A stretch of DNA of 64,000 nt from Ignavibacteriota bacterium (GTDB taxonomy: Bacteria; Bacteroidota; Ignavibacteria; UBA10030; UBA6906): NCBI GenBank assembly GCA_963811705.1, contig CAWESL010000007.1, forward strand, positions 218,100 through 282,099, written 5' to 3'. Below the pieces are notes generated by a model. It made no database searches. It saw nothing but the letters and a program-made list of their open reading frames with translations, and had not been told where the DNA came from. Shown piece after piece: positions 8,936-25,805 of this stretch (position 1 is its first letter; every line of letters starts with the position of its first letter). The translations under genes and the position numbers were made by a program.

Positions 8936-9008
8936 CCTGACCGCGTGATCGATTGGCCGACTCTGGAGGTCGATCTTCCCCGTTCTTCCTCATTATGGAG
9001 CGAATCCC

Positions 9009-10508
9009 ATGAAGCGCATTGTTCTATTGTTCTGTCTCGCGTTTGTCGCCGCCTCAGCCGCCCTGGCGACAAACGGTGTGAAAATGATTGGGTTCAGCGC
9101 GAAGACCGTTGGCATCGGCGGCGCATCCATCGGTACTTTTGATGGTACGGTTCTTATGATGACGAACCCGGCCGGCCTCGGCTTCATCGATGGCTCTGCC
9201 CTCGATGCGAATTTTTCGTTGATGATCCCTTCGCTGAAGTTCACCAATGTTTCGAACGGCGAGACAAACGGGAAGACGAACTATTTCCCGCTTCCCGGGC
9301 TCGCCTATGCCCACGCGAGTGCGGACAACCCGTTTGCCTGGGGAGTCGGCGCGTTCACGCAGGGAGGGATGGGAGCGGATTTCTCGCTCATCAACCCCCT
9401 CTTCCGGGACCAGACCGGCACCCTCACGCCGCAGGAGTATCATTCTCAACTTGCCGTCATGGAAGGTGGACTGAGCGCGGCCTATCGGTTGACCGACAAC
9501 TTTTCCATCGGCGTGTCGGCCCACCTTGTCTACAGTACCCTCGAATTCACCATGCCCTACAGTCTCTCTCCGTCGATCATGAAGGGGATTGCCCAGCCGG
9601 GGATGACGTTCGGACAGATGTTTGCCGCACCGCCGGCCCAGGGCGGCTTTGGCTACACGGAAGTCACCGCACTTGCGGCGATGACGGATCTGACCGCAAT
9701 CGGCTTTTGCGGCAAGATCGGCGTCGCGTACAAGGTCAGCGACCGGTTTACCATCGGGGCCAGCTACACGTCCGCATCCCCGCTGACCTACAAGAACGGC
9801 AAGGCGACGATGGATATGACCGCCCAGTTGACCGACGCGTTCGGGAAGGCCGTTCAAGGCTACATGGCTTCGAACCCTTCCGCAACTGCGGTCCAGGCGC
9901 AACAAGCCGTTGCCGGGCAGTTCGGTCAAATGGGAATCGATCTGACCAAGGGTGCAGTCGCCAACTACAACCTGCAGACCACACTGACACTCCCCCAGTC
10001 AATCGGGATCGGTGCATCATATTCCGCGACCGATCAACTCCGGTTTGCACTCGATGTCGAATGGGTCAACTGGAGTGCGGCATTCGACAAGATGGGGATC
10101 TCGCTTTCCAACGGCTCGAATGCCAATATCAACACGATGCTGGGAAACAGCGGCGCGTTCTCTCTTGATTTTCCGATGAACTGGAAGGACGCCGTCAATG
10201 TCCGGTTGGGTGCGGAGTATGCGCTCGTACCGGCCGTGCTCGTCCGCGCAGGGTACGCCTACGGAAAGAACCCCGTTCCTCCGTCAACCATTTTCCCTGT
10301 GTTCCCCGCCATCGTCGAAAACCATGCAATGGTCGGCGCTTCATGGAATATCACCAGCATCATCGGTCTCCATGTGGCGTACGAAATCGCGCTCAACAAC
10401 AAGGAGACGGCAAGTACGCCGAGCACAGTCGCCCAGGAGTACAACGGATCCGTGAGCCAACTCCTCGAAAATATCTTCCACGCCTCCATTTCCTGGAGCC
10501 TCAAGTAG
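9009..10508 (+). CDS. FadL/OmpP1/TodX-family outer-membrane hydrophobic-compound transporter
   Basis: Signal peptide, then NGVKMIGFSAKTVGIGGASIG...NPAGLGF resembling the FadL/Toluene_X N-terminal hatch region. 499 aa, alternating beta-strand pattern. Confidence 0.6.
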   Translation: MKRIVLLFCLAFVAASAALATNGVKMIGFSAKTVGIGGASIGTFDGTVLMMTNPAGLGFIDGSALDANFSLMIPSLKFTNVSNGETNGKTNYFPLPGLAYAHASADNPFAWGVGAFTQGGMGADFSLINPLFRDQTGTLTPQEYHSQLAVMEGGLSAAYRLTDNFSIGVSAHLVYSTLEFTMPYSLSPSIMKGIAQPGMTFGQMFAAPPAQGGFGYTEVTALAAMTDLTAIGFCGKIGVAYKVSDRFTIGASYTSASPLTYKNGKATMDMTAQLTDAFGKAVQGYMASNPSATAVQAQQAVAGQFGQMGIDLTKGAVANYNLQTTLTLPQSIGIGASYSATDQLRFALDVEWVNWSAAFDKMGISLSNGSNANINTMLGNSGAFSLDFPMNWKDAVNVRLGAEYALVPAVLVRAGYAYGKNPVPPSTIFPVFPAIVENHAMVGASWNITSIIGLHVAYEIALNNKETASTPSTVAQEYNGSVSQLLENIFHASISWSLK

Positions 10509-10537
10509 GAAGTCGGCAAAAGGGTTTTCACAAAAGG

Positions 10538-10580
10538 CAACGGCGATCCCGAACGAGGTCGCCGTTGTTGTTTTCGTTTA
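10538..10580. terminator. bidirectional rho-independent terminator between convergent FadL-like and lplA genes
   Basis: Hairpin caacggcga-tcccgaacgagg-tcgccgttg followed by ttgttttcgttt. Confidence 0.5.
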
Positions 10581-10604: not shown

Positions 10605-11690
10605 TTACAGCGCAGGAGGGACGGGGTTCACCGCAGCCAGGAATGCCCGGCCGAAATCCTCTTCCGCCAGGCCAGGCGACGTGATCGGCAAATCGCGATA
10701 GACTTCACGCACGCGGGCGACGACAGAACGATCGTCTGCATGCACACCGCGCAATGCCGTCTCAACACTGCCGAGGCCGAGTGCAGGGAGCATCGTGAAA
10801 TCGCCCGACAGGGAAATATCTTCGATGCGGTCCCCCGTGAGCCGCGCCGTCAGACGGAGAAGTCCCCCGGGAGCCTTCCATGCCCCTTCGACAATTCGTA
10901 CATCTTCATGGATCTTCACTCCCACGGGGCGCAGCCCTCCCCGCTGCAGCATCCATTCCTCCGATTGGAATCGACGATCCACTTCTACCGCCGCCGCCTC
11001 TTCCCGCTCCGTCCACACCCCCGGGAGGATTTCCGCATCAAGCACTTTCTCGCAGTTCCGAACGTAGAGACCCTTGACATCATCACGAGGAGGCGACGAG
11101 CCGAGCTGCTCGGTGATGGTGGTCATGTACTGCTCGAGACCCTCGACGATTTTGTCTCGCATTTTTTCCGACGACACCCTGAGAACCTTCGCCATCGTCT
11201 TCTTGTCGAACGTGAACATGAGACTCCCGACCACGACATCGGCGACGCCGATCTGCGCCGCCCCCGTCCCGCCGATTTTCTTTCCCCCGACATGGATATC
11301 GTTGACCGGTCGATGATAGGCATTGATCCCGAGTGCCTGGTAGGTCTCCACAAGCGGTCGGATATACACGGCGAAGCGCTCGACCAGATCCGCCGGAAGA
11401 TGTCCCGGCTGGAAGATCCATTGCGCGAAGACCTGTCCGCTATCGAGATAGACGGCGCCGCCTCCCACTTCGCGACGGTAGATGGGAAGTCCGCGCGACC
11501 GGCAGTGGTCGACATCGACTTCCTTCCGGAGATCCTGATGGTAGCCGATGCAGACGTAGGGACTGGAGGGACTGGCGAGGATGATGGTGTCCGGAGTTTC
11601 GGGGAGCATCGCATGACCGACCGCGTGGTAGACGGTCTGCGACCGGAGGGGGGAGACGTTCGTAAGATCAAGCAGCCTCACACGCTTCAC
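10605..11690 (-). CDS. lplA: lipoate-protein ligase A family protein
   Basis: 361 aa. N-terminus KRVRLLDL..., the conserved GGKKIGGTGAAQ (LplA GxKIxGsAQ-type motif) and an LplA C-terminal domain. The GTG start overlaps the hypC stop (GTGA). Confidence 0.8.
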   Translation of the reverse strand: MKRVRLLDLTNVSPLRSQTVYHAVGHAMLPETPDTIILASPSSPYVCIGYHQDLRKEVDVDHCRSRGLPIYRREVGGGAVYLDSGQVFAQWIFQPGHLPADLVERFAVYIRPLVETYQALGINAYHRPVNDIHVGGKKIGGTGAAQIGVADVVVGSLMFTFDKKTMAKVLRVSSEKMRDKIVEGLEQYMTTITEQLGSSPPRDDVKGLYVRNCEKVLDAEILPGVWTEREEAAAVEVDRRFQSEEWMLQRGGLRPVGVKIHEDVRIVEGAWKAPGGLLRLTARLTGDRIEDISLSGDFTMLPALGLGSVETALRGVHADDRSVVARVREVYRDLPITSPGLAEEDFGRAFLAAVNPVPPAL

Positions 11691-11959
11691 GGCAATGGCT
11701 CCGAGCCCGGCGGGAGGGTTTCCAGGTCGCGCAACTCATCGTTCATCTTCAGGAAGCCGAAAATCTCCGCCGCCGCTTCTTCGTCGATCTTGCTGAGCGC
11801 GAATCCGACATGGACGACCACATAGTCCCCGACCTGGACATCAGGAACGTAGGCGAGGCTCACGTCTTTGGAGATTCCGCCGAATTCCACCTTGCCGATG
11901 GTCATGCCGAGCGGATTGGTCTCGATGCGCACAACTTTGCCGGGAACACCTAGACACAT
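11687..11959 (-). CDS. hypC: [NiFe] hydrogenase maturation chaperone HypC/HupF
   Basis: N-terminal MCLGVPGKVV signature and a length of 90 aa. Confidence 0.85.
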   Translation of the reverse strand: MCLGVPGKVVRIETNPLGMTIGKVEFGGISKDVSLAYVPDVQVGDYVVVHVGFALSKIDEEAAAEIFGFLKMNDELRDLETLPPGSEPLP

Positions 11960-12002
11960 TTTCGAATTTGGCGTTTGAATTTTGGAAATGGGAATGGCTT
12001 GC

Positions 12003-12491
12003 TTACGATGTTCCTGACTCCCAGTCTTGGAGGATCCGCTTCACCCTGGCCGTCATCTCGTTCGACACGGCTTCCACCGCCGACGTCATGCCGAATCCAA
12101 CCGAGATATCCATCGGCTGTACCCCGATGAGGTGCAGATGTTCCGGCAGTTTTCCCCTGATCTGCGCAAGACCCAGAACCTCCTGAAACGTCACCTGGTG
12201 CTGGGACATTTTCACTCCTGAGAAGAGCGGGATCGCATCTCGGGAAAGCTCGACCACCGTTGCCGGCGGCTTCCCGGCATTGACCGCATCGAGGAGGAGC
12301 AGATGGCTGCACTCCTCCACGAGCGGCAGCAGATTCAGGCCGAGCGTACCGCCATCGACAAACTCGAACGACGTCCGGGATTCCATCTGCTCCCGCAGCC
12401 TGGCGAGCAGATGGACCCCGACACCTTCATCCCGGTTCAGCGTGTTGCCGAGACCGAGCACGATTTTCCTCCCTGCCGCCGGTTCGTTCAT
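12003..12491 (-). CDS. hupD: hydrogenase maturation endopeptidase (HyaD/HybD/HupD family)
   Basis: LGLGNTLNRDEGVGVHLLARL matches the GxGNxxxxDDGxG protease motif. Its ATG overlaps the hynL stop (ATGA). Confidence 0.85.
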   Translation of the reverse strand: MNEPAAGRKIVLGLGNTLNRDEGVGVHLLARLREQMESRTSFEFVDGGTLGLNLLPLVEECSHLLLLDAVNAGKPPATVVELSRDAIPLFSGVKMSQHQVTFQEVLGLAQIRGKLPEHLHLIGVQPMDISVGFGMTSAVEAVSNEMTARVKRILQDWESGTS

Positions 12492-14220
12492 TGCAGAACA
12501 ACGTTCAGCTCGGTGGAGACGTTCCCAACGTCCTTGCCTTCAGCGTCGATCATGTGGATGGCACACGCCATGCACGGATCGAAGGAATGGATGGTGCGCA
12601 AGATTTCGAGTGGCCACTCGGGTTTTTCCATTTTCGTCCCGACAAGAGAGGATTCGTAGGCGCCTTCCTGCCCCTTGTGGTCTCGCGGAGACGCGTTCAG
12701 GTCGTCGGCACGACGAGTTGGTAGTTCGCGATCTTGCCATCGTCGATGACGATCCAGTGTCCGAGCGCGCCGCGGGGTGCCTCCATGAAACCGAACCCCT
12801 CCGCGTGTGACGGCCAGGTGCCGGGATCCCACTTGTCGTTGTGAAGGTCCGAGTGTTCCCGGCCTTGATCTCGGCGATAAGCTCGCCGTAAAACTCGCGC
12901 AGCCAGTCTGCGATGACTTTGGTCTCGATCGCCCGCGCCGCCGTCCGTCCAAGCGTCGAAAACACCGCGCTGATCGGCGCATCGAGTTTCTTGAGCGTCA
13001 GCCGACAAGCTCTCGCGTTTGCTCATGGCCTTTCGCGTACAGCGCAAGGACGCGCGCGAGGGGGCCGACTTCCATCGGCGCTTCATTCCATCGCGGGGAC
13101 TTCAGCCAGGAATACTTCTGTTCGACCTCGAGGTTTTTATACGGCGATTTCGGCCCCGTGAAATTGAGTTCTGTTTCGCCGCGCCAGGGATGAAGACCGA
13201 CCTGGTCGCCACCGCTGTACTTGTACCAGCTATGGGCAATGAATTCCTTCATTTTGTCGAAATCCCGCGGATCTGGCTCGATGATGTTCGCGAGATCCTT
13301 GTTCATGATCGCGACACGGGGGAACAGGTACTTTGACGTGTCTTTCGGATCAACGCCGGGGAATTCTCCCACGTCAGGAAATTGCCGAGCTCACCGCCGA
13401 TGCCCGCGTAGTCTTTATAGTACGGGGCTATGGCGAGGATATCGGGGATGTAGACCTGATCGACGAACTCGACGATCTTGTCGATCGAATCGGCGATGAT
13501 CGCGAGGCGTTCCGCGTTCAATGCGGTGTCGCTGTTGAGATCGATCGGCATCGGGATGCCGCCCACCACGAAATTCGGGTGCGGTTCTTTCCCCCGAAGA
13601 TCGTGTGCATCTTGTCACATGCCGCTGCCAATCAAGGGCTTCGAGGTAGTGCGCGACGGCGAGCAGGTTGATCTCCGCCGGGAGCTTGTACGCCGGGTGC
13701 CCCCAGTAGGCATTCGAGAAGATCGACAGTTGCCCGCTCGTTGCGATGCCTTGCACCTTCTTCTGCACATCGGCGAAGTAGGCGGGAGAAGAATTGCCCC
13801 ACGCGGAAATCGCCTGTTGGATTTCCGAGGTCTTCTTTGGATCCGCCTTGAGCGCGGCGACGACGTCCACCCAATCGAGCGCATGGAGGTGATAGAAATG
13901 CATGACGTGATCGTGGATGTACTGTTGCGCGATCATCATGTTACGGACGATATTCGCCGCCTGGGGAATCCGGATGTCGAGGGCATCTTCGACCGACTGG
14001 ATGGACGCAAACGCGTGCACGGTGGTGCAGACCCCGCAGGCACGCTGGGTGAACGCCACGCTTCCCGCGGGTCCCGCCCTTTCAGGATGATTTCCATTCC
14101 CCGGACTATGGTGCCGGATGAATATGCCTTCGTGATGGTGTTGCTTTCATCCAGTTCGGCTTCGATCCTGAGGTGTCCCTCGATGCGGGAAATCGGATCA
14201 ACGACGATACGATGTGCCAT
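12488..14220 (-). pseudogene. hynL: [NiFe] hydrogenase large subunit (HynL/HyaB-like), interrupted by ~7-8 single-base frameshifts
   Basis: Homologous segments appear in successive frames. First [20 protein letters not shown]..., then [14 protein letters not shown] (the RxCGxC Ni-binding motif), then ...VGGIPMPIDLN..., then ...[10 protein letters not shown]..., then [13 protein letters not shown]..., then [10 protein letters not shown]...VVPTT, then NASPRD...HSFDPCMACAIHMI (the C-terminal DPCxxCxxH motif). Together they are collinear with E. coli HyaB. AGGAG lies upstream of the ATG at 14220. Confidence 0.85.
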
Positions 14221-14230
14221 ACACGTTCTC

Positions 14231-14584
14231 CTATTGGTTGCGGAGCCAGTCGAGGCCCTCGGCTTCATTCTCGAAATTGCGCACCGCGTGGGCGTAGTAA
14301 CTCTCGTCAATATCCAGTGTCCCCGGCGGCAGGATTCCCCCGATGATCGCCGCCACCGGCATCATGGGCCGGAGCTGACGAATGTGCCGCGCGCATTCCA
14401 CGACAGGAGTGCCGGTGAGATCGATGAGGAGTTTTCCCCGATAGTCCCTGAAAAACGTCGCGAGCGATTGGATGTCTTCGGGCGAAAACGTTCCACTATG
14501 CCTGCAGCGCATGATCCCTTTTTCCACTGGTGTCAGATTGAACGATGCCATGCTATCATCTCCGGGAAAAGTTCGGGCAGCCAA
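14231..14584 (-). CDS. hypothetical 117-aa protein inserted between isp2 and hynL
   Basis: ORF whose stop lies 10 nt upstream of hynL. No confident family match. It has weak receiver/STAS-like character ([21 protein letters not shown]). Confidence 0.35.
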
Positions 14585-14587
14585 AGA

Positions 14588-15846
14588 CTATTCCATTGCT
14601 TCCGCCACCATCTGCGACAGTCCCCTGACCTTGATGTCAAGATGGAAGTGTTCAACGCTGTCGGTGTACTGCAGTCTGCAATTGGAACAGGTCATCGTGA
14701 CGGTCTTCGCGCCGACGGCCTGCAGTTGCCGCATCTTCAGCTCGAACACGCCGTAGCGGTTCGCATCGGCTTCTTTGATGGCGATCACCCCTCCGCCACC
14801 GCCGCAGCAGACCGACTGCTCCTTGTTTGGCGTCATCTCCTTGAAGGCATTCGGGGCAAGGATTTGCAGGATCTCGCGGGGCTCCTGGATGTGTGATCGC
14901 GCCGCTGGATCTTGCACGCGTCGTGAAACGTGAGAACGCCGTCCCCGTCGAACGCCCCCTTCTTCAGGGTGAGTCTCCCCGCCTTGATGTAGTCCATGGT
15001 AACACCGACGATGTGAACAATCTCCAGGCCTTCGGGGACTTTCATCATGTTCGCCGCGGTCCACCGGAGGGCGTCGTAGGCATGTCCACATTCCGTGACC
15101 AGCAGCCGCTTCACGCCGAGATCCTTTGCCGCGTCAAAGAGCCGCTGCATGAACAATATGGTCCGCTCGTTGCTTCCTTCAAAGAACCCGAAATTCACCA
15201 CCTCGCGACCGGCGCTGCTGACAGTCCATTTCTCCCCGGCCTTGGTGAGGATCTTCGCAATCGCGGCGATGGTCTCGGGGAACTTCATGATCTCGATGGA
15301 GGTGAACACCACGAGCGTGTCGGAACTCTTGACGTCCGTCGGAATTTCGACCTCCCACTCGTCGGCGATCCACTCCATGCGCTGTTCCCACACCGACTGG
15401 GTGGCGCCGAGCGGACTGCCCTCCTCGACCTGCTTCTTGACCGCTGCCATCAGGTCGGCCGGGACAACCCCGGCATTGGACATCGCTGTCCGCACATCGT
15501 GGATCATTGGACTGAGCTGGATCCCCATCGGACAGACCATCGCGCATTTATTGCAGAGCGTGCACGCTTCATACACGATGGTGCTCCAGTGCGCGATGTC
15601 CTCATCGGTTATTTTCTTATCCATCCCGAGTGCGAGCTTCGCCCGTCCGCCAAGGGTACAACGCTGCTCGTACGCCCGGCGGAGAAGCTCCACTTTCCAC
15701 ACCGGTGCAAACTCCGGGTTATTCATCGCTTCGTAAAAGTGACACGCCTCGGCGCAGATGCCGCACCGAGTGCACGCTTCGAGCTGCGAGGCCAACCATC
15801 CGCCGGTCTCCTCGATGAACGTCGTGAGGGCTTGTTCGGTTGCCAT
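14588..15846 (-). pseudogene. isp2: Isp2: HdrD/GlpC-like Fe-S protein with two CCG domains, one frameshift near 14900
   Basis: MATEQ... contains two CxxCxxCxxxC(P) ferredoxin motifs (CTRCGICAEAC, CTLCNKCAMVCP), a first CCG-type domain (ECGHAYD...TFHDACKIQRR), then a frame switch into the second CCG domain (PREILQ...CCGGGGGVIAIKEADA...CSNCRLQ). A GAGGAGG SD precedes the ATG at 15846. Confidence 0.75.
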
Positions 15847-15860
15847 GACGGGCCTCCTCG

Positions 15861-16538
15861 TTACGGTGTGACGGCGCGTTTGCCGAACTGCGCGCCGTGA
15901 ATGGTCCGGGAAAAGAAATAGAACATGAAATGCGAAATTCTGCTGAACGGAATCCAGAGCAACATGATGTCGACCGAAAGCACATGAAGCGCAAACAGCA
16001 TTTGATACGGCGAGAACAAATGATGCGCCATCAGGTACCCCGTGATCATCGGGAGAAACACCACGAGCCAATTCACGACCTCCGCGACACCGGTCAGGAG
16101 CTTCAATACCGGATCGATGAAGCGGTTGATCAGGAGGGCCGCCATGGCGATGATCGTCACTGCGGCAAGCCAGTCGATGATCGGTACCGGGATCGTCGTC
16201 CAACTGAGCCCCAGGAGACTCTTCCACACGAGCATGTGCGGCGTTCCGAGGAAGACAATCACAAATAGCCCGAGATGGAACAGGCCGCCCGCAAGGTACA
16301 TGACCGGTTTTTTCGAAAACGTGTTCTTCACCCAGGGGATAAACGGCCAGATGACAATCCCCTTGAGGTACGTGATGGCGACCCCTTTCGCCTTGCTCTC
16401 TTTGGACGGGACCCTGTCGCGACTCCATCCCAGCAGAAGGACGCGCATCAGCCGGTACGCCATTCCGCCGACGAACACGATGAGCGCCACGTTAAAGAAG
16501 GGCCCCCGTGCGAATTCAAGTGTTTCATTCCAGTTCAT
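15861..16538 (-). CDS. isp1: Isp1: NarI/DsrM-like dihaem cytochrome b membrane anchor
   Basis: 225 aa, about 5 predicted TM helices with conserved His residues (FHLGL, TPHML, AHHLF, ALHVL). It sits between hynS and isp2, as in Isp-type hydrogenase loci. Confidence 0.65.
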   Translation of the reverse strand: MNWNETLEFARGPFFNVALIVFVGGMAYRLMRVLLLGWSRDRVPSKESKAKGVAITYLKGIVIWPFIPWVKNTFSKKPVMYLAGGLFHLGLFVIVFLGTPHMLVWKSLLGLSWTTIPVPIIDWLAAVTIIAMAALLINRFIDPVLKLLTGVAEVVNWLVVFLPMITGYLMAHHLFSPYQMLFALHVLSVDIMLLWIPFSRISHFMFYFFSRTIHGAQFGKRAVTP

Positions 16539-16547
16539 GGCAGTCTC

Positions 16548-17657
16548 CTATTCAGCAGTGACATGCTTCTTGGAGGCGCGATTGCCTGCGGCCACTCCCG
16601 CGCCAACCACCGCGCCAGCGCCTGCGGCGATCCCGAGGGCGGTGAGTGTCGGCTTGCTGAGCGGCGCCGATTGACCCTGATAAAACCCTCCGCCGTCCCA
16701 GAAATTCGGCTCCGAGCAACCTAGACACGGGTGCCCCGATTGGATCGGGAACGAAAGACCGCGGTCCCATTTGATTGTCGCGCACGCATTGTACGTTGTC
16801 GGACCTTTGCAGCCGAGTTTGTAGAGACACCAGCCTTTTCGCGCTCCTTCGTCGTCGAAGGAAAGTGCGAATTTCCCGGCCTCATAGAATGGCCTGCGCA
16901 GGCAGCGGTCATGGATCGTGTTGCCGTAAAACGTCTTCGGCCGGTTAAGCTCGTCGAGCTCGGGAAGCGTCCCGAACACCAGGAACTGGGCGAGCGTGCC
17001 GGTAAAGACTTCAGGAATCGCGGGACAGCCCGGAATATTCACCACGGGTTTGTCGGTGATGATCTCCGCGATCCCTTTCGCTTCGGTGGGATTGGGCTTC
17101 GCCTTCGGAATCCCGCCAAAGGTCGCGCAATTTCCCGTCGCAACGATCGCCAACGCACCGGCCGCCGCTTCTTTGAGCAGGTCGTTGGCCGACCGGCCGC
17201 CGATCGTGCAATAATCACCGTTGATGCCGAGAGGCACGGAACCTTCTACCACGAGGACATACTTCCCTGCGTACTTCTTCATTGTCTCCATCTTGTTCTC
17301 TTCGAGCTGAAATCCCGAAGCAGCCGAAAGCGTCTCGTGGTACTCAATGGAGATCTTGTTCAGGACGAGATCAATCAGTGTGGGCGATTGTGAGCGCGTG
17401 AGCGCTTCGCTGCATCCTGCACAGTCCTGAAATTCAAGCCAGATGACGGGCACCCGTGGCCGCGACGCAAGCGCTTTTCCCACCACGTCCGCGCCGGTGC
17501 CGTTGGACGCGAGAACAGACTCCGGGAAACCGCTCGCCTTCCACGGGGGAAAAGAATTCAACCCCATCGCTCCTGCCAGGAGACCGCACAGCTTCACAAA
17601 ATCCCGGCGCGTCACGCCTTCACGCCGGAGATGCTGATAGATTGTCTCTTCAGACAT
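16548..17657 (-). CDS. hynS: [NiFe] hydrogenase small subunit with Tat signal and C-terminal membrane anchor
   Basis: RRDFVK Tat motif, PVIWLEFQDCAGCSE and the proximal, medial and distal Fe-S cluster Cys ligands. C-terminal hydrophobic anchor. GGAGG SD upstream. Confidence 0.9.
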   Translation of the reverse strand: MSEETIYQHLRREGVTRRDFVKLCGLLAGAMGLNSFPPWKASGFPESVLASNGTGADVVGKALASRPRVPVIWLEFQDCAGCSEALTRSQSPTLIDLVLNKISIEYHETLSAASGFQLEENKMETMKKYAGKYVLVVEGSVPLGINGDYCTIGGRSANDLLKEAAAGALAIVATGNCATFGGIPKAKPNPTEAKGIAEIITDKPVVNIPGCPAIPEVFTGTLAQFLVFGTLPELDELNRPKTFYGNTIHDRCLRRPFYEAGKFALSFDDEGARKGWCLYKLGCKGPTTYNACATIKWDRGLSFPIQSGHPCLGCSEPNFWDGGGFYQGQSAPLSKPTLTALGIAAGAGAVVGAGVAAGNRASKKHVTAE

Positions 17658-17675
17658 GTGTTCCTCCGCAAGGAT

Positions 17676-18122
17676 TCACTGACATGAGATGCCGTCGGCT
17701 TCGAGCTTGGCCTGATACTTTGCAATGCCTTCGGGTCCGGTGACAAGGGTGCCTTTTTCACCATCCCAATCATTGGCCTTCATCTCCGCGATCCACCCTT
17801 CACCGTAAGGATCGGCGATCGCGATATTCGGATCCTGCGCCAGCTTCTCGTTTGCGCGCTGCAGAATGCCGGTGACCGGCGCCGGCACAGGCCCGACGAA
17901 CTTGCTGCTCTCCACGGTCGCGACACTCTTCCCTTGTTTGACCTCCTGGCCGATGTTTTTCGCCTTTACGGTGATCGCCGCGAGCTTCCCGCCGGACAGC
18001 TTCGCCGCGACTGAGGTCATGCCGATGCGAATGATCCCTCCGTCCATCGGTTTCGCCCAAACGTGCTTCTCGATATTATAGAAGAGATCGTCGGGCAGAT
18101 GACAGCCACGAATCGTCGCCAT
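17676..18122 (-). CDS. GcvH-like lipoyl-carrier protein (stand-alone, LbpA-like)
   Basis: 148 aa collinear with E. coli GcvH: EKHVWAKP..., a lipoyl-lysine motif VESSKFVGPVPAPVTG and DPYGEGWIAEMK near the C-terminus. No gcvT or gcvP nearby. Confidence 0.8.
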   Translation of the reverse strand: MATIRGCHLPDDLFYNIEKHVWAKPMDGGIIRIGMTSVAAKLSGGKLAAITVKAKNIGQEVKQGKSVATVESSKFVGPVPAPVTGILQRANEKLAQDPNIAIADPYGEGWIAEMKANDWDGEKGTLVTGPEGIAKYQAKLEADGISCQ

Positions 18123-18137
18123 GGTTCGTTTTTCTCC

Positions 18138-18527
18138 TTAGAAGGTCAGTGTCGTTTTGGCTTCTTCGGACATTTGCCACATCGCTGCACCGCCCACCAT
18201 CTTTATTCCATCAAGCAAATCGGATGGTTGGAGGTCGTGCAGTTCCGTCGAGGCGGTGCAAGCGGTAAACTTCACCCCTGCGTCCATGGCGTCCTTGAGA
18301 AAGTCCGACACCGGCTTGCCGCCGGCCTTCGGATAGACGGTTTCCGCCATTCCCTTCTTCAGGAGCAGCGTTCCGTCGATGGTAAAGAACATGGTGACGT
18401 CATATTCCATGGCCGCTGCAAGCGTGGCGAAAAAGAACGGCGTCGCACACCGCCGGGGTGTGTCGGGACCGCTGGTCATAATAATGAGAATCTTGTCATC
18501 CATGATAACAGTCCTCGAAGAGCACAT
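18138..18527 (-). CDS. DsrE/DsrF-like sulfur-relay family protein
   Basis: About 120-129 aa (a likely start at MDDKILIIM near 18503), YchN/DsrE fold pattern and a conserved Cys in GVKFTACTAS. Confidence 0.6.
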   Translation of the reverse strand: MCSSRTVIMDDKILIIMTSGPDTPRRCATPFFFATLAAAMEYDVTMFFTIDGTLLLKKGMAETVYPKAGGKPVSDFLKDAMDAGVKFTACTASTELHDLQPSDLLDGIKMVGGAAMWQMSEEAKTTLTF

Positions 18528-18608
18528 CAGGAATTTGAGTGGAATGGAAAGAACGGAACCGCGGGAGAAGAGTCAAAGAGCGTTCAGCGAAATCGAACAG
18601 CGTTGCGT

Positions 18609-19085
18609 TCAGAACGTCAGCGTGATGGCATTCCTGCTGGCAAACTCCAGGAATGTCGCGGCTCCGCCGATCTGGAGACCGTCCATGAGTTCTTCCTTCT
18701 TGATGCCCATGACGTCCATGGTCATCTGACAGGCAATCAGTTTGACGCCGGATTCCACGGCGATGTCCAGCAGCTCGCTCAGCTTGGCCACCTTGGCTTT
18801 CGACATCCAGCTGTTCATCATCATGGTGGCCGCCGCGGTCATGCCGGGGAGCATTCCGATGATGTTCGGCATCGGGACCGGCATCGCGGGGTTTCCGATC
18901 GGGGCGACTTTCAGATGGTCGGCTTTTCCCTTCTTGATGATTTCGAGTCCGTAAAACGTGAAGAAGATCGCCGCCTCCATCTCCATCGCCGCGGCAGCCG
19001 TGGCGAGAATAAGCGGCGGGTACGCCGCGTCAAGAGAGCCGTGCGAGGCAATGATTGCAATGCGTTTGCTTGATTCTTCAGGCAT
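18609..19085 (-). CDS. DsrE/DsrF-like sulfur-relay family protein (longer, DsrE3-like)
   Basis: 158 aa: RIAIIASHGSLD...FFTFYGLEIIKKG...GVKLIACQMTMDVMG. Conserved active-site-type Cys. Confidence 0.65.
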   Translation of the reverse strand: MPEESSKRIAIIASHGSLDAAYPPLILATAAAAMEMEAAIFFTFYGLEIIKKGKADHLKVAPIGNPAMPVPMPNIIGMLPGMTAAATMMMNSWMSKAKVAKLSELLDIAVESGVKLIACQMTMDVMGIKKEELMDGLQIGGAATFLEFASRNAITLTF

Positions 19086-19108
19086 GGGGTTGTTCTCCGG
19101 CAGAAATC

Positions 19109-19345
19109 TTATTTGGTCTTCTTGATGTAGAACGTAAACGTCCCACTGTTTTCTTCATGACTCAGCAACTGGTGTCCGGTCTTTTGCGTCCACGCCGTGA
19201 CATCCGGCACCGAGCCGGCATCGGTGGCGATCATCTTGAGGACCTGACCGACCTGAAGGCTGTCGACCGCCTTCTTCGTCTTCAAAATCGGCATCGGACA
19301 TGCCAGGCCGGTGCAATCGAGCGTCTGATCTGCATTCGTGGCCAT
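19109..19345 (-). CDS. tusA: TusA-like sulfurtransferase
   Basis: 78 aa with LDCTGLACPMPILKTKKA (CPxP motif). Confidence 0.8.
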   Translation of the reverse strand: MATNADQTLDCTGLACPMPILKTKKAVDSLQVGQVLKMIATDAGSVPDVTAWTQKTGHQLLSHEENSGTFTFYIKKTK

Positions 19346-19370
19346 GATCTGCTCCTGAGGAGTGATTGAT

Positions 19371-20117
19371 TCATTCGTTGGGTAAGGTACTCATGTGCGC
19401 GATGGAGCGGAGACGATTGATTAACTCGGCCCGCTCGTGCGCAACCTGTTCAAACGTCATCGCGACCTTTTCGAGCCAGAGGCCGAGCTGGTCCTCGTAA
19501 CGGCGATCGATACGGCGGATGTGTTTGGCGGCCGTGTGGAGATCGTCCGCAGGGATGTCGTGCATTGCGGCCAGCTTCTCAATCCGGGCGCTCTCTTCCT
19601 CGGGATCGGGGGCGTCATCATAGAATTGGCCTGCGATAACCATCGCAACAGGAGCTCCGTTGAGTTCAATCCGGGAGCGCGCGTATTGCAGGCCGGCATG
19701 ACAGGTCACAAATTTCGGGACCTTCTCCGATTGTTGCGCAAGCTTCTCCCACGACCCGAGACATGCCTTTTTGCCGGATGGGCTTTTGAGGATCAGCGAG
19801 CAAAAATCACACGAGTTACTGATCTCGGTAAGCGGTTCCCCCGTCGGCGATGTGGTCAGGGAGCCCACCTGGGCAATCTCGGCAAACACTTGTTGAATCG
19901 GAAGAACACAATGGATGGGAAGTGGGTCACTTGGCAAGGTTTCAAGGTCAGGGCGAACCGCGCCTCCGACGAGCGCGTCTACTTCGTCCTTCGAAAACCT
20001 CCATTGCCCTCCCACCCTGACACCGGTAATGCGGCCGTCCTTCAACATCCTGTAGATCGTCGTTCGATCAATCTTCAGAAGTCCCTGCAGTTCCTTCGTC
20101 GTAAGAAGGTTGGCCAC
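19371..20117 (-). CDS. HTH (excisionase/MerR-like) DNA-binding regulator with C-terminal Cys-containing sensory domain (PocR-like)
   Basis: The N-terminal LTTKELQGLLKIDRTTIYRMLKDGRITGVRVGGQWRF is an excisionase-family HTH. The C-terminal ~170 aa contain conserved Cys and His (CDFCSLIL...CLGSW...CHAGL). First gene of the sulfur-carrier/hydrogenase array. Confidence 0.5.
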   Translation of the reverse strand: MANLLTTKELQGLLKIDRTTIYRMLKDGRITGVRVGGQWRFSKDEVDALVGGAVRPDLETLPSDPLPIHCVLPIQQVFAEIAQVGSLTTSPTGEPLTEISNSCDFCSLILKSPSGKKACLGSWEKLAQQSEKVPKFVTCHAGLQYARSRIELNGAPVAMVIAGQFYDDAPDPEEESARIEKLAAMHDIPADDLHTAAKHIRRIDRRYEDQLGLWLEKVAMTFEQVAHERAELINRLRSIAHMSTLPNE

Positions 20118-20129
20118 AATCCGTCCAGA

Positions 20130-20185
20130 TCTGTTACGTTGCTATAGTTTGCTACAACTTGCCATAGCATATTATTGAAATTGAT
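20130..20185. promoter_or_regulatory. imperfect triple direct repeat TTGCTATAG / TTGCTACAAC / TTGCCATAGC immediately upstream of the HTH regulator
   Basis: gttacgttgctatagtttgctacaacttgccatagcatatt lies in the 235-bp intergenic region upstream of the regulator start at 20117. Confidence 0.3.
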
Positions 20186-20352
20186 CGGAATTGTCAAGAA
20201 AAATCTTTTCCATGGTTTGCTTGTTCGGGCAATTTTTGGGAGCCAGGACTATCAGGGAGGGGGGCGCCGAGCTTCAAGAAAAGAGCGATTAGGGAAGCAG
20301 GATTCGCGCTTGGCGCGACTTGGAGGGGTGGGAATCTGTAAAGACGGAGATG

Positions 20353-21057: not shown

Positions 21058-22320
21058 TTAATCGAATCGATGAGGATTCAGCAGCGACACATCGTGCGAT
21101 GGTTTCTCCCCACGGATCATCTCCGTCACAAGCTTCCCGGTCACCGTCGCGAGCGAAATCCCGAGCATCGCATGACCTGTGGCCGCCAGCAGGTTCGCAT
21201 ATTGCCGGAACCGACCGATGTATGGCATGCCATCCGGGCTGACAGGCCGAAGACCTGCCCACAACGTTGGCTCGCCGGATCCCGTGAGGGCAACGTTCCG
21301 GAAATACCGTGGCACTGCGTCGAGGATCGCCTGGACCCGAAGGTGATTGATCGACGTACTCATTCCGGAGAGTTCCATCGTTCCCGCCAACCGAAGGCTC
21401 TCCTGAAACGGCGTGACCGCAACGCGGCGTTCCACAAGAATGTAGGGGTGGACGGGCTTCACCGGCGGGTTGCGGTAGGTGATGCTGTACCCTTTTCCGG
21501 GCTGCATGAGGATCCGGAGCCCCAGGTGTCGCGCGATCGCCGGAGACCAGGCGCCTCCTGCGAGAACAAACTCCCCGGCACGAATCTCCCCTTGCGACGT
21601 CACAACGGACGTCACGCGATTTCCGTTCACGGCAAACGTTTGGACTTCGCACTGACGCAGGATCGTTGCGCCCGAACGCTCCAGGAAGAGAGCCATGTCA
21701 CGTACCAGCGTCGCGGGGACAAGGTGTGCGTCGCCCGGGTAGAAAACACCACCCCTTGCGCAAAAGTCGACTCCGGGATCCAGGACCTGGAGGTCTTCCC
21801 GGTTTAGAACCCGCGCCTCCATCTTCAATTCGTCAGCAAGCGCCGCTTCGTGCAAGGCCGAACGTCTCCCCGCCTCCGACTGGAAGAGCATGCAGAGTCC
21901 CTGACGGGTAAAGTGAAAATCCATTCCCGGCTCGTGCGACAGCGATTCCATAAGTCGCGATCCATCGAGAAGCAGGTCACGGAGGACGGGCATCGCCCGC
22001 CGCATCGTCTGCTCATCCGAGGACCGCCTGAACTCCCACGCCCATGCGATCAATTCCCTGCTCACCCGGGGTTTGACATAAAAAGGACTGCGGGGATTGA
22101 ACATCCATTTTACCGCCTGCCCGAACACGCCCGGTGCGGCAAGCGGAACGAAGTGACTGGGGCAAATGTATCCCGCGTTATGGAGCGAGCTCCCATGCCC
22201 CATCTCGCCTTTGTCCACCACCGTGACGGAAGCGCCGGCCTTCAACAGATAATATGCGGCGCACAGACCGATGGCGCCGCCGCCGACAATCAAGACATCC
22301 GTTTGGCTATCCACAGACAT
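21058..22320 (-). CDS. FAD-dependent oxidoreductase (DadA/D-hydroxyproline dehydrogenase-like)
   Basis: DVLIVGGGAIGLCAAYYL Rossmann dinucleotide motif. The start was chosen at the internal Met MSVDSQTD; the tracked ORF extends upstream to 22473. Confidence 0.7.
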   Translation of the reverse strand: MSVDSQTDVLIVGGGAIGLCAAYYLLKAGASVTVVDKGEMGHGSSLHNAGYICPSHFVPLAAPGVFGQAVKWMFNPRSPFYVKPRVSRELIAWAWEFRRSSDEQTMRRAMPVLRDLLLDGSRLMESLSHEPGMDFHFTRQGLCMLFQSEAGRRSALHEAALADELKMEARVLNREDLQVLDPGVDFCARGGVFYPGDAHLVPATLVRDMALFLERSGATILRQCEVQTFAVNGNRVTSVVTSQGEIRAGEFVLAGGAWSPAIARHLGLRILMQPGKGYSITYRNPPVKPVHPYILVERRVAVTPFQESLRLAGTMELSGMSTSINHLRVQAILDAVPRYFRNVALTGSGEPTLWAGLRPVSPDGMPYIGRFRQYANLLAATGHAMLGISLATVTGKLVTEMIRGEKPSHDVSLLNPHRFD

Positions 22321-22348
22321 TCCCCGACCCGATTTTGCCGAAGGCATA

Positions 22349-23349
22349 TCACTGCACCTGAAATCCGTGGGCATACGGGTCGCGGTCGTCGATAAAGATC
22401 GTATTGAATCCTGTGACGCGCGCCCATCCTTCGATGCTCGGGATGATTCCGTCTTTTTCTCCGACCCTGACAAGATCCTCGACGCGTCCGGTGAACAGGC
22501 TTCCGATGATGCTCTCGTGGATGAACTGATCCCCCTTCTTCAGGCGTCCTTTCGCCGTCAACTGCGCAAGCCGGGCTGACGTCCCCGTGCCGCAGGGGGA
22601 TCGGTCGATGGCGTTGTCGCCATAGAATACGGCGTTCCGCCCATCGGCCTGAGGATGCCGCGGCTTCCCCGTCCACTGGACATGACTGCACCCTCGGATG
22701 GTTGGATTGTGAGGATGCACAAAAGAATATTTCGCGTTAATCTCCCGGCGGACGACGGGACTGAGCCGAAGCACATCCGAGGCAGTCAGCTGGTCCAGGC
22801 TGTTGAACCCGTCGCGCGGATCGACAATCGCGTAGAAATTCCCTCCGTACGCGACATCGAAGTGCAGTGGACCGAGGCCGGGAACATCGACGGTCAGATC
22901 GGAGGAATCAAGATAGGATGGAACGTTGCGCAATCGAACGGATTCGACGAAGCCATGCTCCTCCCGGTATTCGGCCTCGACGACCCCGGCGGGCACTTCG
23001 AGTCGGAGACGGCCGGGCGTTCGCGGCTTCACCAGTCCGTGTTCGATCATCACGACCACCGTCCCGATGGTCCCATGTCCGCACATCGGCAGACACCCGC
23101 TCGTCTCGATGAAAAGGAGAGCGGCGTCAGTATCGTCGCGGATCGGGTCGTAGAGAATGCTCCCGGACATCATGGCATGGCCGCGGGGCTCGAACATGAG
23201 GCCCGTTCGAATCCAATCATACTCGGCAAGGAAATGCTGACGCCGCTCGCTCATTGTCGCGCCGTGAAGCGTCGGCGCGCCGCCGGCGACGACGCGCACC
23301 GGGTTTCCGCAGGTGTGGGCATCGATGCAGAGAAACGTGTTCCGCGCCA
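22349..23349 (-). CDS. proline racemase / 4-hydroxyproline epimerase family protein
   Basis: MARNTFLCIDAHTCGNPVRVV...FEPRGH... are proline racemase family signatures. Start set at the internal Met (about 333 aa); the tracked ORF has an N-terminal extension overlapping the upstream gene. Confidence 0.8.
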
Positions 23350-23403
23350 TGGTCGTGTTTCCGCCTCCGTGACACCGTTGGATGGTTTGCGATTGCACAC
23401 CCG

Positions 23404-24837: not shown

Positions 24838-24840
24838 GGG

Positions 24841-25776
24841 CTACCTCCTTGGAAGTTCGATTTCCGGCAACGCCGGGCGGGATGCTAGCGCATTCTGCAC
24901 CAGCCCCTCGATATGGCGACGTTCTTCGCCGGTCAGAACGAGGCGCGGCGCCCGCACAAATTCAGTCCCGACACCGATAAGGGATTCGACCAGCTTGATG
25001 TAGTGAACAAATTTGATTGACGCATCGAGATGGAGCAACGGCATGAACCAACGGTACAGAGGGAGCGCCTCATCGATCCGCCCGGCCTGCACAAGACGGA
25101 ATAACGCGACCGCTTCCCGGGGAAACGCGCAGACCAGACCGGCAACCCACCCGACAGCACCAAGGATGATGCTTTCGAGGGCAAGATCGTCCACGCCGAT
25201 GAACAGCTCATAGCGATCGCCGACCAGATTTCGGATGTCAGTCAGCCGGCGGACGTTCTCGGAGGACTCCTTTATCGCGACAAACCGGGGTTCGTCAGCA
25301 AGCTCTGCAAACATCTCAGGAGTAACATCGACGCGGTAGGCAACGGGGTTATTATAGAGCATGATCGGCAATCCGGAGGCGGCGGCTATTGCCCTGAGAT
25401 GGGCGATGGTTTCTTGCCGGTCGGACACGTATTGCATCGGGGGAAGAGCCATAAAGCCACTGAGTCCCAGCGTGGATGCCTGATCGACAAACCGGCACGC
25501 GCGTGCTGTGCTGCTCTCGGCGACTCCCGAAAGGACCGGGATTTTCCCGCCAGCAACTTCAACTGCGATTTTCACCAGTTCAAGTTTCTCTTCGGGTTCC
25601 AGTGCCCCATTTTCACCGAGGGAACCGTTCACGACGAGTCCATCGACGCCGCTGTTTACTTGCCAGGCGTAGTGCTTTTTGAGCGCCTCCACGTCCAGAG
25701 ATCCGTCGCGTCGGAACTTCGTTGTCAGCGCGGGGAATACCCCGGTCCAACGGGGCTGCGGAATTGTTGGAGACAT
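24841..25776 (-). CDS. DapA/NAL-family lyase (likely 1-pyrroline-4-hydroxy-2-carboxylate deaminase)
   Basis: 311 aa dihydrodipicolinate-synthase-family fold (GVDGLVVNGSLGE...). Context with a proline-racemase-like gene, an FAD oxidase and an ALDH. Confidence 0.75.
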   Translation of the reverse strand: MSPTIPQPRWTGVFPALTTKFRRDGSLDVEALKKHYAWQVNSGVDGLVVNGSLGENGALEPEEKLELVKIAVEVAGGKIPVLSGVAESSTARACRFVDQASTLGLSGFMALPPMQYVSDRQETIAHLRAIAAASGLPIMLYNNPVAYRVDVTPEMFAELADEPRFVAIKESSENVRRLTDIRNLVGDRYELFIGVDDLALESIILGAVGWVAGLVCAFPREAVALFRLVQAGRIDEALPLYRWFMPLLHLDASIKFVHYIKLVESLIGVGTEFVRAPRLVLTGEERRHIEGLVQNALASRPALPEIELPRR

Positions 25777-25805
25777 GCATGTGTTCCTTTGGCTGAGGAC
25801 GTCTC

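Follow-up and report, generated by a model that had tools for sequence, protein, structure and literature searches.

A conserved gene cassette joining a group 1e-like [NiFe] hydrogenase to an LbpA-type lipoate-binding protein and sulfur carriers in an Ignavibacteriota genome

A stretch of 64,000 nucleotides from an Ignavibacteriota bacterium (the window; NCBI GenBank assembly GCA_963811705.1, contig CAWESL010000007.1, positions 218,100 to 282,099 of the forward strand) carries on its minus strand, from position 20117 down to 10605, a cassette of 13 co-directional, tightly spaced genes in which a group 1e-like [NiFe] hydrogenase, composed of HynS, HynL and the electron-transfer subunits Isp1 and Isp2, is combined with an LbpA-type lipoate-binding protein, a fused lipoate-protein ligase (Lpl) and the sulfur-transfer proteins TusA and DsrE. 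The cassette is new as a combination, although it is built from two known kinds of system. Judging from its gene content and predicted topology, it may constitute one functional operon in which electrons run from HynSL through Isp1 and Isp2 to LbpA and H2 reduces protein-bound sulfur or disulfide, a reading that is given a probability of about one half. A stronger version is put forward more tentatively, namely that Isp1 and Isp2 of the cassette form a distinct family with protein-bound lipoamide (LbpA) as its dedicated electron acceptor, which would make the whole a self-contained, horizontally mobile H2:lipoyl-protein (persulfide) oxidoreductase. In the literature searched by full text, with subscription-only papers outside its scope, no description of this arrangement was found, and the papers on sulfur-oxidising heterodisulfide-reductase-like (sHdr) systems do not mention hydrogenases in the context of LbpA. 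A preliminary description of this DNA, made from its letters, had called the architecture undescribed, and this holds for the searchable literature.

Gene content of the cassette

The genes were delimited from open reading frame (ORF) calls and a three-frame reading of the minus strand between positions 10400 and 20400, and identified by Pfam and NCBIfam scans. They are separated by gaps of -1 to 108 bp and are listed here in the direction of transcription.

19371..20117, minus strand: transcription regulator, 248 amino acids (aa), with an N-terminal helix-turn-helix domain HTH_17 (excisionase-type) and a PocR sensor domain (Pfam PF12728, PF10114)
19109..19345, minus strand: TusA sulfur carrier, 78 aa, CPxP cysteine C16 (Pfam TusA, 95.5 bits)
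18609..19085, minus strand: DsrE2-like sulfurtransferase, 158 aa (Pfam DrsE_2, 168 bits; NCBIfam DsrE2, 174.6 bits, cut-off 210)
18138..18503, minus strand: DsrE3A-like sulfurtransferase, 121 aa, another start lying upstream at 18527 (Pfam DsrE; best PDB match 3mc3)
17676..18122, minus strand: LbpA-type lipoate-binding protein of GcvH fold, 148 aa, with K74, Cys7 and the penultimate Cys147 (Pfam GCV_H)
16548..17657, minus strand: HynS, [NiFe] hydrogenase small subunit, 369 aa, with the twin-arginine translocation (Tat) signal TRRDFVK and a C-terminal anchor (Pfam Oxidored_q6, NiFe_hyd_SSU_C; TIGR00391, 423 bits; TAT signal model)
15861..16538, minus strand: Isp1, membrane b-type cytochrome-like subunit, 225 aa (NCBIfam TmcC/HmcE family, 128/112 bits, below cut-offs)
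14588..15846, minus strand: Isp2, cytoplasmic DsrK/HdrD-like iron-sulfur protein, 419 aa after a one-base repair near 14898 (NCBIfam DsrK/TmcB/HmcF, 202-208 bits)
14231..14551, minus strand: small STAS-like protein by predicted fold, 106 aa; a start at 14584 would give 117 aa
12488..14220, minus strand: HynL, [NiFe] hydrogenase large subunit, about 576 aa, broken by seven single-base deletions (RIEGH/CGVC motifs N-terminal, DPCMACAIH C-terminal)
12003..12491, minus strand: HycI/HynD-type maturation endopeptidase, 162 aa (Pfam HycI, 91.8 bits)
11687..11959, minus strand: HypC/HupF chaperone, 90 aa (Pfam HupF_HypC, 92.8 bits)
10605..11690, minus strand: fused lipoate-protein ligase Lpl(AB), 361 aa (Pfam LplA-B_cat, PF21948, and an LplB-like C-terminal domain)

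The preliminary description had the coordinates, strand order and gene identities right and counted 12 genes where there are 13. It had also allowed that TusA and DsrE might belong to a separate transcription unit, which would have undone its proposal; this is unlikely, because no gap exceeds 108 bp and the gene order is conserved.

Conservation of the linkage across phyla

The GcvH-like carrier has 1219 relatives at E<=1e-5, of which the best 120 are 75-100% identical. A separate scan covered one genome per species (185,579 species) and was followed by tblastn with all cassette proteins. The gene tables of five of the relatives (L001-L005) agree in their arrangement of the regulator, TusA, DsrE2, DsrE, the GcvH-like protein, HynS, Isp1, Isp2, HynL, the protease and Lpl, and in L002-L005, among them an Anaerolineaceae genome, the cassette genes are intact and the flanks unrelated. 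The full order reg-tusA-dsrE2-dsrE3-lbpA-hynS-isp1-isp2-(small)-hynL-hycI-(hypC)-lpl recurs between unrelated flanks in 31 loci. Wherever the GcvH-like protein of a species-representative locus is at least 54% identical (27 of 27 loci: L008-L032, L035 and L067; the 31 also take in further metagenome assemblies), the hydrogenase lies directly downstream in the same order. Matches under about 52% identity come from hydrogenase-free loci with TusA, DsrE, Lpl and weakly related proteins bearing a CCG motif. The cassette spans at least five phyla (Bacteroidota, Chloroflexota, Calditrichia, Acidobacteriota and Actinomycetota), its Bacteroidota carriers belonging to the Ignavibacteriaceae and Melioribacteraceae and its many Chloroflexota carriers to the Anaerolineae, Thermoflexales, Caldilineaceae and Herpetosiphon, together with the isolate Oscillochloris sp. 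ZM17-4. TusA and DsrE2 are found in 28-29 of the 31 loci and the DsrE3-like gene in 31 of 31. Of the 28 loci on contigs long enough to show it, 24 have a ligase gene at the 3' end; a HypC gene in this place is confined to L002 and L008, the closest relatives. Judged by gene order, the arrangement is far beyond chance, because the same order recurs in 31 independent loci. The linkage of a gcvH-like gene, hydrogenase and lplA, for which the preliminary description had proposed a co-occurrence search, is conserved in the 27 species representatives.

One of these loci belongs to a cultured organism: L018 (Oscillochloris sp. ZM17-4, NZ_JAIEWN010000031.1) has the reduced set regulator-dsrE-lbpA-hynS-isp1-isp2-hynL-hycI and lacks tusA, dsrE2 and lpl within 10 kb, and the isolate is a possible experimental entry point. 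In Chloroflexota loci, a divergent tatA gene lies just upstream of the cassette regulator (L003:7382-7561, L005:7727-7894, L007:7079-7246), an arrangement consistent with Tat export of HynSL.

The carrier is LbpA-type rather than GcvH

LbpA proteins are defined by a lipoyl-lysine and by a pair of strictly conserved cysteines, placed near the two ends of the protein, which GcvH does not have (Cao et al. 2018). In the cassette carrier, the residue that aligns with the lipoylated lysine in solved structures of GcvH is K74, and K74, C7 and C147 are invariant in 31 cassette sequences; canonical GcvHs of 127-130 aa, put through the same scan, showed neither of the two cysteines. The carrier also fails to reach the GcvH cut-offs, scoring 91.6 bits against 117 (NF002270) and 65.8 against 115.85 (TIGR00527). 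In a neighbour-joining (NJ) tree of 103 GcvH-fold proteins from the fetched loci, with 300 bootstraps, the hydrogenase-linked carriers form one clade in 286 of 300 replicates and the canonical GcvHs stand apart from it. Nearest to the clade are two-cysteine proteins of the hydrogenase-free TusA/DsrE/Lpl loci, mostly from actinomycete metagenome-assembled genomes (MAGs), together with that of Alicyclobacillus tolerans. The smallest clade enclosing the hydrogenase-linked set adds only two-cysteine LbpA-type proteins in 191 of 300 replicates; monophyly of the entire two-cysteine group is weak (91/300), and the deep nodes are weak, as in Cao et al. 2018. The gene neighbourhood departs from that of known LbpA genes, no sHdrA/B/C homolog besides Isp2 being found beside lbpA in the 64-kb window or in L002-L005. 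By its lysine, its cysteines and its place in the tree, the carrier is classed as LbpA-type and not as a glycine-cleavage GcvH, which bears out the distinction from bona fide GcvH that the preliminary description had suspected, and its lipoylation at K74 by the cassette's own ligase is proposed.

These data also decide against an explanation of the locus in which an ordinary glycine-cleavage GcvH and a housekeeping LplA flank a hydrogenase as chance neighbours. The source annotations do call the carrier 'glycine cleavage system H protein', but no gcvT or gcvP is called beside it in the window or in L002-L005, and the order kept in 31 loci across phyla, the sub-threshold GcvH scores, the LbpA-defining cysteines and the separate grouping of canonical GcvHs leave this explanation a negligible probability: synteny and membership tests already refute it.

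Sulfur carriers and lipoate-protein ligase

The active-site cysteines of the three sulfur-transfer proteins are conserved throughout: C16 of TusA is invariant in 29 sequences, C119 of the DsrE2-like protein is invariant, and C19 and C82 of the DsrE3A-like protein are invariant in 30 sequences. The DsrE2-like protein matches PDB entries 3pnx and 2qs7, the second of which is DsrE2B, and the best match of the DsrE3A-like protein, 3mc3, is DsrE3A (Tanabe et al. 2024). The presence of a DsrE3A-like carrier hints at thiosulfonate substrates (thiosulfate or tetrathionate).

The C-terminal third of the ligase matches archaeal LplB (NCBIfam NF053749 at residues 269-353), PDB chains 3r07_A and 3r07_C match the two halves of Lpl(AB), and K138, within a GxKxxG motif, is conserved in 24 sequences together with R72/R73; every NCBIfam score of the protein is below its cut-off. 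With a catalytic LplA domain fused to an LplB-like domain and the catalytic lysine in place, the ligase can be assigned, on its sequence features, to the sLpl(AB) type. Two or three Lpl lineages occupy the same 3' position in different loci, the type found in the window (10605-11690, minus strand) and the L005 type (L005:15954-17000) being 36% identical. That divergent ligases sit at one position argues for selection on function, and not for an inherited neighbourhood. L013 (16207-20447) and L020 (10107-12803) additionally contain a cysteine-less GcvH-like protein and two radical-SAM proteins, one of them fused to LplA, additions which, by analogy, recall the sLpl(AB)-LipS1/S2 lipoate assembly genes of shdr clusters.

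The hydrogenase and its electron-transfer subunits

Insertion of isp1-isp2 between the hydrogenase structural genes is a trait of group 1e (2024 paper), and the order here is hynS-isp1-isp2-(small ORF)-hynL. When the intact ortholog of HynL from L005 is compared with the PDB, the best chain is that of the group 1e enzyme of Allochromatium vinosum (3MYR_B, 825 bits), followed by Salmonella Hyd-5 (710 bits), and HynL is 63-65% identical to the HynL proteins of Thermochromatium and Thiodiazotropha. The hydrogenase can be classed as group 1e-like on these best matches and the gene order; the structure-database match agrees with the group 1e placement anticipated in the preliminary description.

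Export or membrane signals are predicted only in HynS, which has a Tat signal and an anchoring transmembrane (TM) segment at residues 338-356, and in Isp1, which has five predicted TM helices and seven conserved histidines. LbpA, TusA, the DsrE proteins, Lpl and Isp2 show no TM segment in a hydropathy scan and no signal peptide on inspection. Because only HynS and Isp1 show membrane or export signals, Isp2 is the only soluble, signal-less redox subunit able to meet LbpA.

Isp2 contains two cubane-cluster motifs of the form CX2CX2CX3C (C25/28/31/35 and C95/98/101/105), a TECGH motif (C253, H255) and one CCG motif (C311/C347C348/C387xxC390), all 100% conserved in 30 sequences. Two cubane motifs, a single CXnCCGXnCX2C and a T/GECGH cysteine are the signature of DsrK, HmcF and TmcB, in which thiol/disulfide chemistry takes place at the single noncubane cluster and the T/GECGH cysteine; DsrK uses electrons from the DsrM hemes to reduce the trisulfide that DsrC carries on its C-terminal arm (PMC10861901). 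By its motifs, Isp2 is accordingly placed among proteins with the DsrK/HmcF/TmcB-type catalytic signature; its scores of 208, 208 and 202 bits do not reach the equivalog cut-offs of 400, 735 and 750, and no Dsr, Hmc or Tmc partners were found in the window. Within the cassette clade, Isp2 proteins are 54-89% identical across phyla. When the N-terminal 323 residues were compared with 1.84 billion cluster representatives, two full-length clusters were recovered at 566 and 393 bits, after which matches fall to 259 bits or less and at most 43% identity; cassette Isp2 forms its own discrete family, because the database scores drop sharply past these two clusters. No other Hdr-like, TusA, DsrE or LbpA gene occurs in the window, so that Isp2 stands as the sole Hdr-like component, as the preliminary description had it.

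Frame breaks in isp2 and hynL

As read by tblastn with intact orthologs, isp2 lies in two frames and hynL in three frames in the window, which was overlooked in the preliminary description, where both were taken as plain genes. Alignment with L008, L002 and L001 locates seven single-base deletions in hynL (14055, 13613, 13584, 13370, ~13000, ~12845 and 12698), and comparison with L001 locates one in isp2 (~14898). L001, which comes from a different sample, is another assembly of this organism and matches the window at 99.6% identity over 11.5 kb. It has the missing base at six of the eight sites, while 15 single-base deletions peculiar to it lie in isp1, isp2, hynL, lplA and the flank; only the deletions at 13584 and 13370 are common to both assemblies. 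When the two are merged, Isp2 becomes whole at 419 aa and hynL is still in three pieces. HynS retains its Tat motif and FeS cysteines, while HynL carries its seven deletions. All eight deletions fall within 2.2 kb (12698-14898), the other ~9 kb of the cassette reading through.

These breaks are most likely long-read consensus errors rather than signs of a pseudogene, consensus error appearing much likelier because six of the eight sites are whole in L001 and the HynL pieces are undecayed. It would be surprising if the hydrogenase were instead a decaying pseudogene and the cassette non-functional in this genome, whatever it does elsewhere. Such decay could account for the bunching of eight frame-breaking deletions in so short an interval, for the two shared with L001 and for the fact that long ORFs elsewhere in the window (888-1236 aa) are intact, but in most of the eight cases a short run of one base has become shorter, the broken genes contain neither in-frame stops nor larger indels, and L001 lacks six of the deletions while bearing others in other genes. 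The HynL pieces are moreover 92-93% identical to L002 over most of the protein, as are intact neighbour genes (87-95%), with 65% over the last ~85 residues, where the hynL call of L002 is itself short. Both assemblies look like error-prone long-read MAG contigs, the relatives bearing 'MFD' long-read MAG sample names. Selenocysteine or programmed frameshifting was considered for hynL and rejected, the seven deletions being scattered, mostly in same-base runs and mostly absent from L001. Between positions 9000 and 21500, 14 of the 23 substitutions between the window and L001 have A in the window and G in L001 on the coding strand, mostly preceding G; this one-directional pattern looks like a base-calling artefact, perhaps connected with modified bases, and not like strain variation.

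Proposed mechanism and alternative chemistries

Topology and homology suggest a path of electrons from H2 through Isp1 and Isp2 to carrier-bound lipoamide or persulfide, as the preliminary description had proposed, and the sequence-based checks that it named all spoke for its interpretation. The cassette Lpl(AB) would lipoylate LbpA at K74 to give the holo-carrier, H2 would be oxidised outside the cell by Tat-exported periplasmic HynSL, and the electrons would pass the membrane via Isp1 to cytoplasmic Isp2, whose noncubane [4Fe-4S]/TECGH site would use the two electrons from H2 to reduce the oxidised carrier, be it a lipoamide disulfide or a persulfide or trisulfide involving Cys147, Cys7 or the lipoyl thiols. 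TusA and the DsrE2-like and DsrE3A-like proteins would deliver sulfane sulfur, as persulfide or as thiosulfonate from thiosulfate or polysulfide, to the reduced carrier (dihydrolipoamide or Cys147/Cys7), after which sulfide would leave and the carrier would return to the lipoamide disulfide or to a carrier-bound tri- or persulfide. The net reaction would be H2 + protein-bound S(0) -> H2S, and protons would be released outside and consumed inside in a redox loop such as that of the methanogen Vho-HdrED or of DsrMK-DsrC. The PocR-type regulator may sense sulfur or redox state. By analogy, the scheme agrees with the H2-dependent reduction of sulfur in which Hyn-type enzymes are reported to take part. 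Gene identities, conserved synteny, LbpA membership, catalytic residues and topology are the established ground on which it is built; from these we infer the direction of electron flow, LbpA as the substrate of Isp2, the sulfur species handled and the conservation of energy.

Several observations weigh against this scheme. The potentials of H2 (~-414 mV), lipoamide (~-290 mV) and S0/HS- (~-270 mV) leave a small span for moving two charges against the membrane potential. Neither hynL nor isp2 is intact as read in this window. Four loci on contigs that are long enough (L018 and L021-L023) are without lpl within 10 kb, and the Oscillochloris locus also lacks tusA and dsrE2, leaving lbpA and one dsrE as the only universal partners. 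The AlphaFold2 (AF2) model of LbpA, made with 31 close homologs, has a predicted local distance difference test score (pLDDT) of 61, falling below 50 in the lipoyl hairpin, and the placement of Cys7 and Cys147 relative to K74 was not derived from it. In sHdr systems, finally, LbpA serves sulfur oxidation, which is the opposite direction (Cao et al. 2018; Tanabe et al. 2024).

The same complex might work on LbpA in the manner of DsrC, Isp2 reducing a persulfide or trisulfide on Cys147 with Cys7 or a lipoyl thiol, and the lipoate being auxiliary. The DsrK-type site of Isp2, with TECGH and one CCG motif, would suit the DsrC-bound trisulfide chemistry of its namesake, Cys147 is penultimate and as invariant as Cys7, and the C-terminal cysteine of LbpA has been compared with the sulfur-binding cysteine of SoxY (Cao et al. 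2018). The equal invariance of K74 and the dedicated ligase in most loci argue instead that lipoate is essential, and the Cys7-Cys147 distance is not derivable from the poor AF2 model; a DsrC-like carrier is unlikely.

Quite unlikely, too, is the reading in which lipoyl-LbpA is a mere electron shuttle that passes electrons from Isp2 as dihydrolipoamide to a dihydrolipoamide dehydrogenase and on to NAD(P)+, TusA and DsrE being used for cofactor sulfur or regulation. The step from lipoamide to NAD+ is slightly uphill. In the sHdr model, the dihydrolipoamide of LbpA is indeed re-oxidised by dihydrolipoamide dehydrogenase with reduction of NAD+ (Cao et al. 2018), NAD+ or ferredoxin has been proposed elsewhere as the acceptor of Isp2 (2024 paper), and a pyridine-nucleotide-disulfide oxidoreductase lies near the L003 cassette. 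No such oxidoreductase is conserved in the cassette, however, three sulfur-carrier genes with invariant active-site cysteines are kept in nearly all loci, and most cassettes are without a lipoyl synthase that would need a sulfur donor.

Electrons might also run the other way, as in sHdr systems, with TusA, DsrE and LbpA supplying Isp2 with sulfane sulfur and Isp1 passing the electrons on to quinone, or to HynSL, which would serve as a valve that evolves H2. In that case the hydrogenase would join Isp2 as another donor at one and the same site on Isp1. Evolution of H2 driven by sulfur is disfavoured by thermodynamics, and the hosts look like anaerobic or facultative heterotrophs. All characterised LbpA systems oxidise sulfur (Cao et al. 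2018; Tanabe et al. 2024), the closest relatives of LbpA, Lpl and TusA that were checked in detail belong to a type II sHdr cluster, and Hyn-type enzymes are described as reversible; but sHdrA, B1 and C1, which are proposed to be the oxidising core of sHdr, are missing from the window and from L002-L005, and the reaction known for a lone DsrK-type site is the two-electron reduction of a disulfide or trisulfide rather than the four-electron oxidation to sulfite (PMC10861901). The oxidative direction is distinctly improbable, and H2-driven reduction of protein-bound sulfur or disulfide is the preferred reading.

Comparison with known systems

With the group 1e hydrogenases of Thiocapsa, Allochromatium and Thermochromatium, the cassette shares the order hynS-isp1-isp2-hynL, a small subunit with a Tat signal, a cytochrome b-like Isp1 and a CCG-containing Isp2. 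In both of the classical operons examined for comparison (L088, L089) the order is HupH-HynS-Isp1-Isp2-HynL, and no GcvH-like, TusA, DsrE, LbpA or Lpl gene was found within 8 kb; conversely, the upstream HupH is a feature of the classical operons and TusA/DsrE/LbpA/Lpl one of the cassette. A role of TusA, DsrE and LbpA in hydrogenase maturation was considered and rejected, since these two classical operons do without them. Between the two types, identities are 30-38% for Isp1, 34-38% for Isp2, 51-55% for HynS and 63-65% for HynL, and divergence is much greater in the subunits for electron transfer than in those for catalysis. The cassette Isp1/Isp2 family is thus distinct, and the hosts are non-proteobacterial and heterotroph-like. 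Hyn-type (Isp-type) enzymes have been tied to H2-dependent sulfur reduction and described as reversible, and the acceptor of Isp2 is treated as open, with low-potential NAD+ or ferredoxin suggested (2024 paper).

The accessory set, in turn, is that of type II sHdr-LbpA systems (shdrC1B1AHB3-etfAB-emo with lbpA, slpl(AB), tusA and dsrE3A), comprising a two-cysteine LbpA, a fused Lpl(AB), TusA and DsrE2/DsrE3A. The counterparts in the type II sHdr cluster of A. tolerans (L040) are 39-49% identical (ligase 44%, TusA 49%, DsrE3-like 46%, DsrE2-like 39%). This cluster includes a Fer4+CCG protein, EtfBA, a 716-aa Fer4+CCG protein and two GCV_H genes, a layout that fits the published shdr...B3-etfAB-emo arrangement (Tanabe et al. 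2024), and it is the one hydrogenase-free neighbour for which type II sHdr context was documented. Judged by sequence identity, the cassette and the sHdr systems are homologous in their accessory halves, and, as in sHdr clusters, radical-SAM (LipS-like) genes adjoin some of the loci. Unlike sHdr clusters, the cassette is without sHdrA, sHdrB1/C1, EtfAB and EMO, its sole CCG protein is the membrane-tethered Isp2 within a hydrogenase operon, and its direction is likely reductive where that of sHdr is oxidative. A tblastn of the window with all ORFs of the A. tolerans cluster returned LbpA, Lpl, TusA and DsrE only, plus weak 22-24% matches to Isp2, and no sHdr core.

In pairing a membrane b-type cytochrome with a cytoplasmic DsrK-type subunit, the cassette resembles DsrMK(JOP)-DsrC, HmcEF and TmcBC, and like DsrC its presumed substrate is a small carrier with a penultimate C-terminal cysteine; it differs from DsrMK-DsrC in having an attached hydrogenase instead of the quinone pool as donor, a putative lipoyl carrier of GcvH fold, and no DsrAB. 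VhoGAC and HdrED of Methanosarcina offer another likeness, with an outward [NiFe] hydrogenase, membrane b-type cytochromes and a cytoplasmic CCG disulfide reductase of the HdrD type, and Vho/HdrED builds a proton gradient by a redox loop. There, however, two complexes are linked by methanophenazine, the substrate is free CoM-S-S-CoB, and HdrD has two CCG motifs where Isp2 has one. Two Chloroflexota loci (L047:4860-8791 and L048:6663-10441) carry tusA-dsrE2-dsrE3, a NarI-like cytochrome b (PF02665), a DsrK-like (Fer4+CCG) gene and lbpA, in that order and with no hydrogenase. Their LbpA is 40% and their DsrK-like protein 31-41% identical to those of the cassette, and they supply an independent parallel that supports the pairing of LbpA with a DsrK-type protein; their donor is presumably quinol, in which case they may be a quinol-driven counterpart of the cassette.

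Regulator, small ORF and flanking genes

A regulator gene precedes tusA in 25 of the 31 cassette loci. Across 26 orthologs, C70, C106, C119, C139 and H140 of the regulator are at least 95% conserved, and the cysteines and histidine of its PocR domain suggest metal, Fe-S or persulfide sensing. The small ORF between isp2 and hynL is present in 17 of 31 loci, with C16, H18 and C53 invariant. Its 117-aa reading has no Pfam match and it has no NCBIfam match, PF11964 being found in some homologs. The AF2 model (pLDDT 86.6) has STAS/RsbS/SpoIIAA proteins as top Foldseek matches (TM-score ~0.6, best E 1.4e-3), and the protein could, on this predicted fold, be a redox or partner-switching accessory.

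Two candidate signals border the cassette:

20169..20197, minus strand: sigma-70-like promoter match (10/12) upstream of the regulator gene, weak, in a region that holds no more such matches than shuffled sequence
10536..10569, no strand assigned: GC-rich hairpin with a 13-bp stem, from a terminator scan and the only strong hairpin of the region

The sigma-70 scan is uninformative (4 sites found against 3.1 expected), and Bacteroidota promoters differ from the sigma-70 model. The hairpin lies between the convergent stops of lplA and a FadL-type outer-membrane gene (9009-10508, plus strand) and likely marks the end of the operon, where it is probably a bidirectional terminator.

Adjoining the cassette on its other side (21058-25803, minus strand) are genes for a DAO-type FAD oxidoreductase, a proline-racemase-family protein, an aldehyde dehydrogenase and a dihydrodipicolinate synthase (DHDPS)-family protein, a run that looks like a hydroxyproline catabolic cluster. 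Farther away (34733-63638), a GH10 xylanase, several large Por_Secre_tail proteins of the type IX secretion system (T9SS), a xylulokinase, a xylose isomerase and a TonB-dependent receptor form a context of polysaccharide use. The host is a heterotrophic, Bacteroidota/Ignavibacteria-like member of the FCB group (Fibrobacteres, Chlorobi and Bacteroidetes) and not a classical sulfur lithotroph.

Implications

The cassette offers a candidate partner for Isp2 that is encoded beside the enzyme and conserved with it across phyla, and would, if the proposed pairing is true, answer the question of the Isp2 acceptor. The only process with which LbpA, its private ligase and TusA/DsrE have been linked until now is the oxidation of sulfur by sHdr (Cao et al. 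2018; Tanabe et al. 2024), and a hydrogenase in the place of sHdr implies a portable unit for protein-bound sulfur or disulfide that can be attached to different redox engines. If the scheme is true, a lipoyl protein would for the first time be seen as the terminal carrier in a respiratory chain, the LbpA/TusA/DsrE module would gain its first role in reduction, and the loci with DsrMK-like proteins and LbpA but no hydrogenase would represent the counterpart driven by quinol. Except for the complex itself, the components are small, soluble proteins, and an assay of H2-dependent reduction of lipoyl-LbpA is feasible. The carriers belong to abundant, poorly understood lineages of soil, sediment and digesters, such as Anaerolineae, Ignavibacteria, Calditrichia and Acidobacteriota, in which the cassette may mark hidden H2-driven sulfide formation or cryptic sulfur cycling that surveys of the dsr, psr and phs markers miss.

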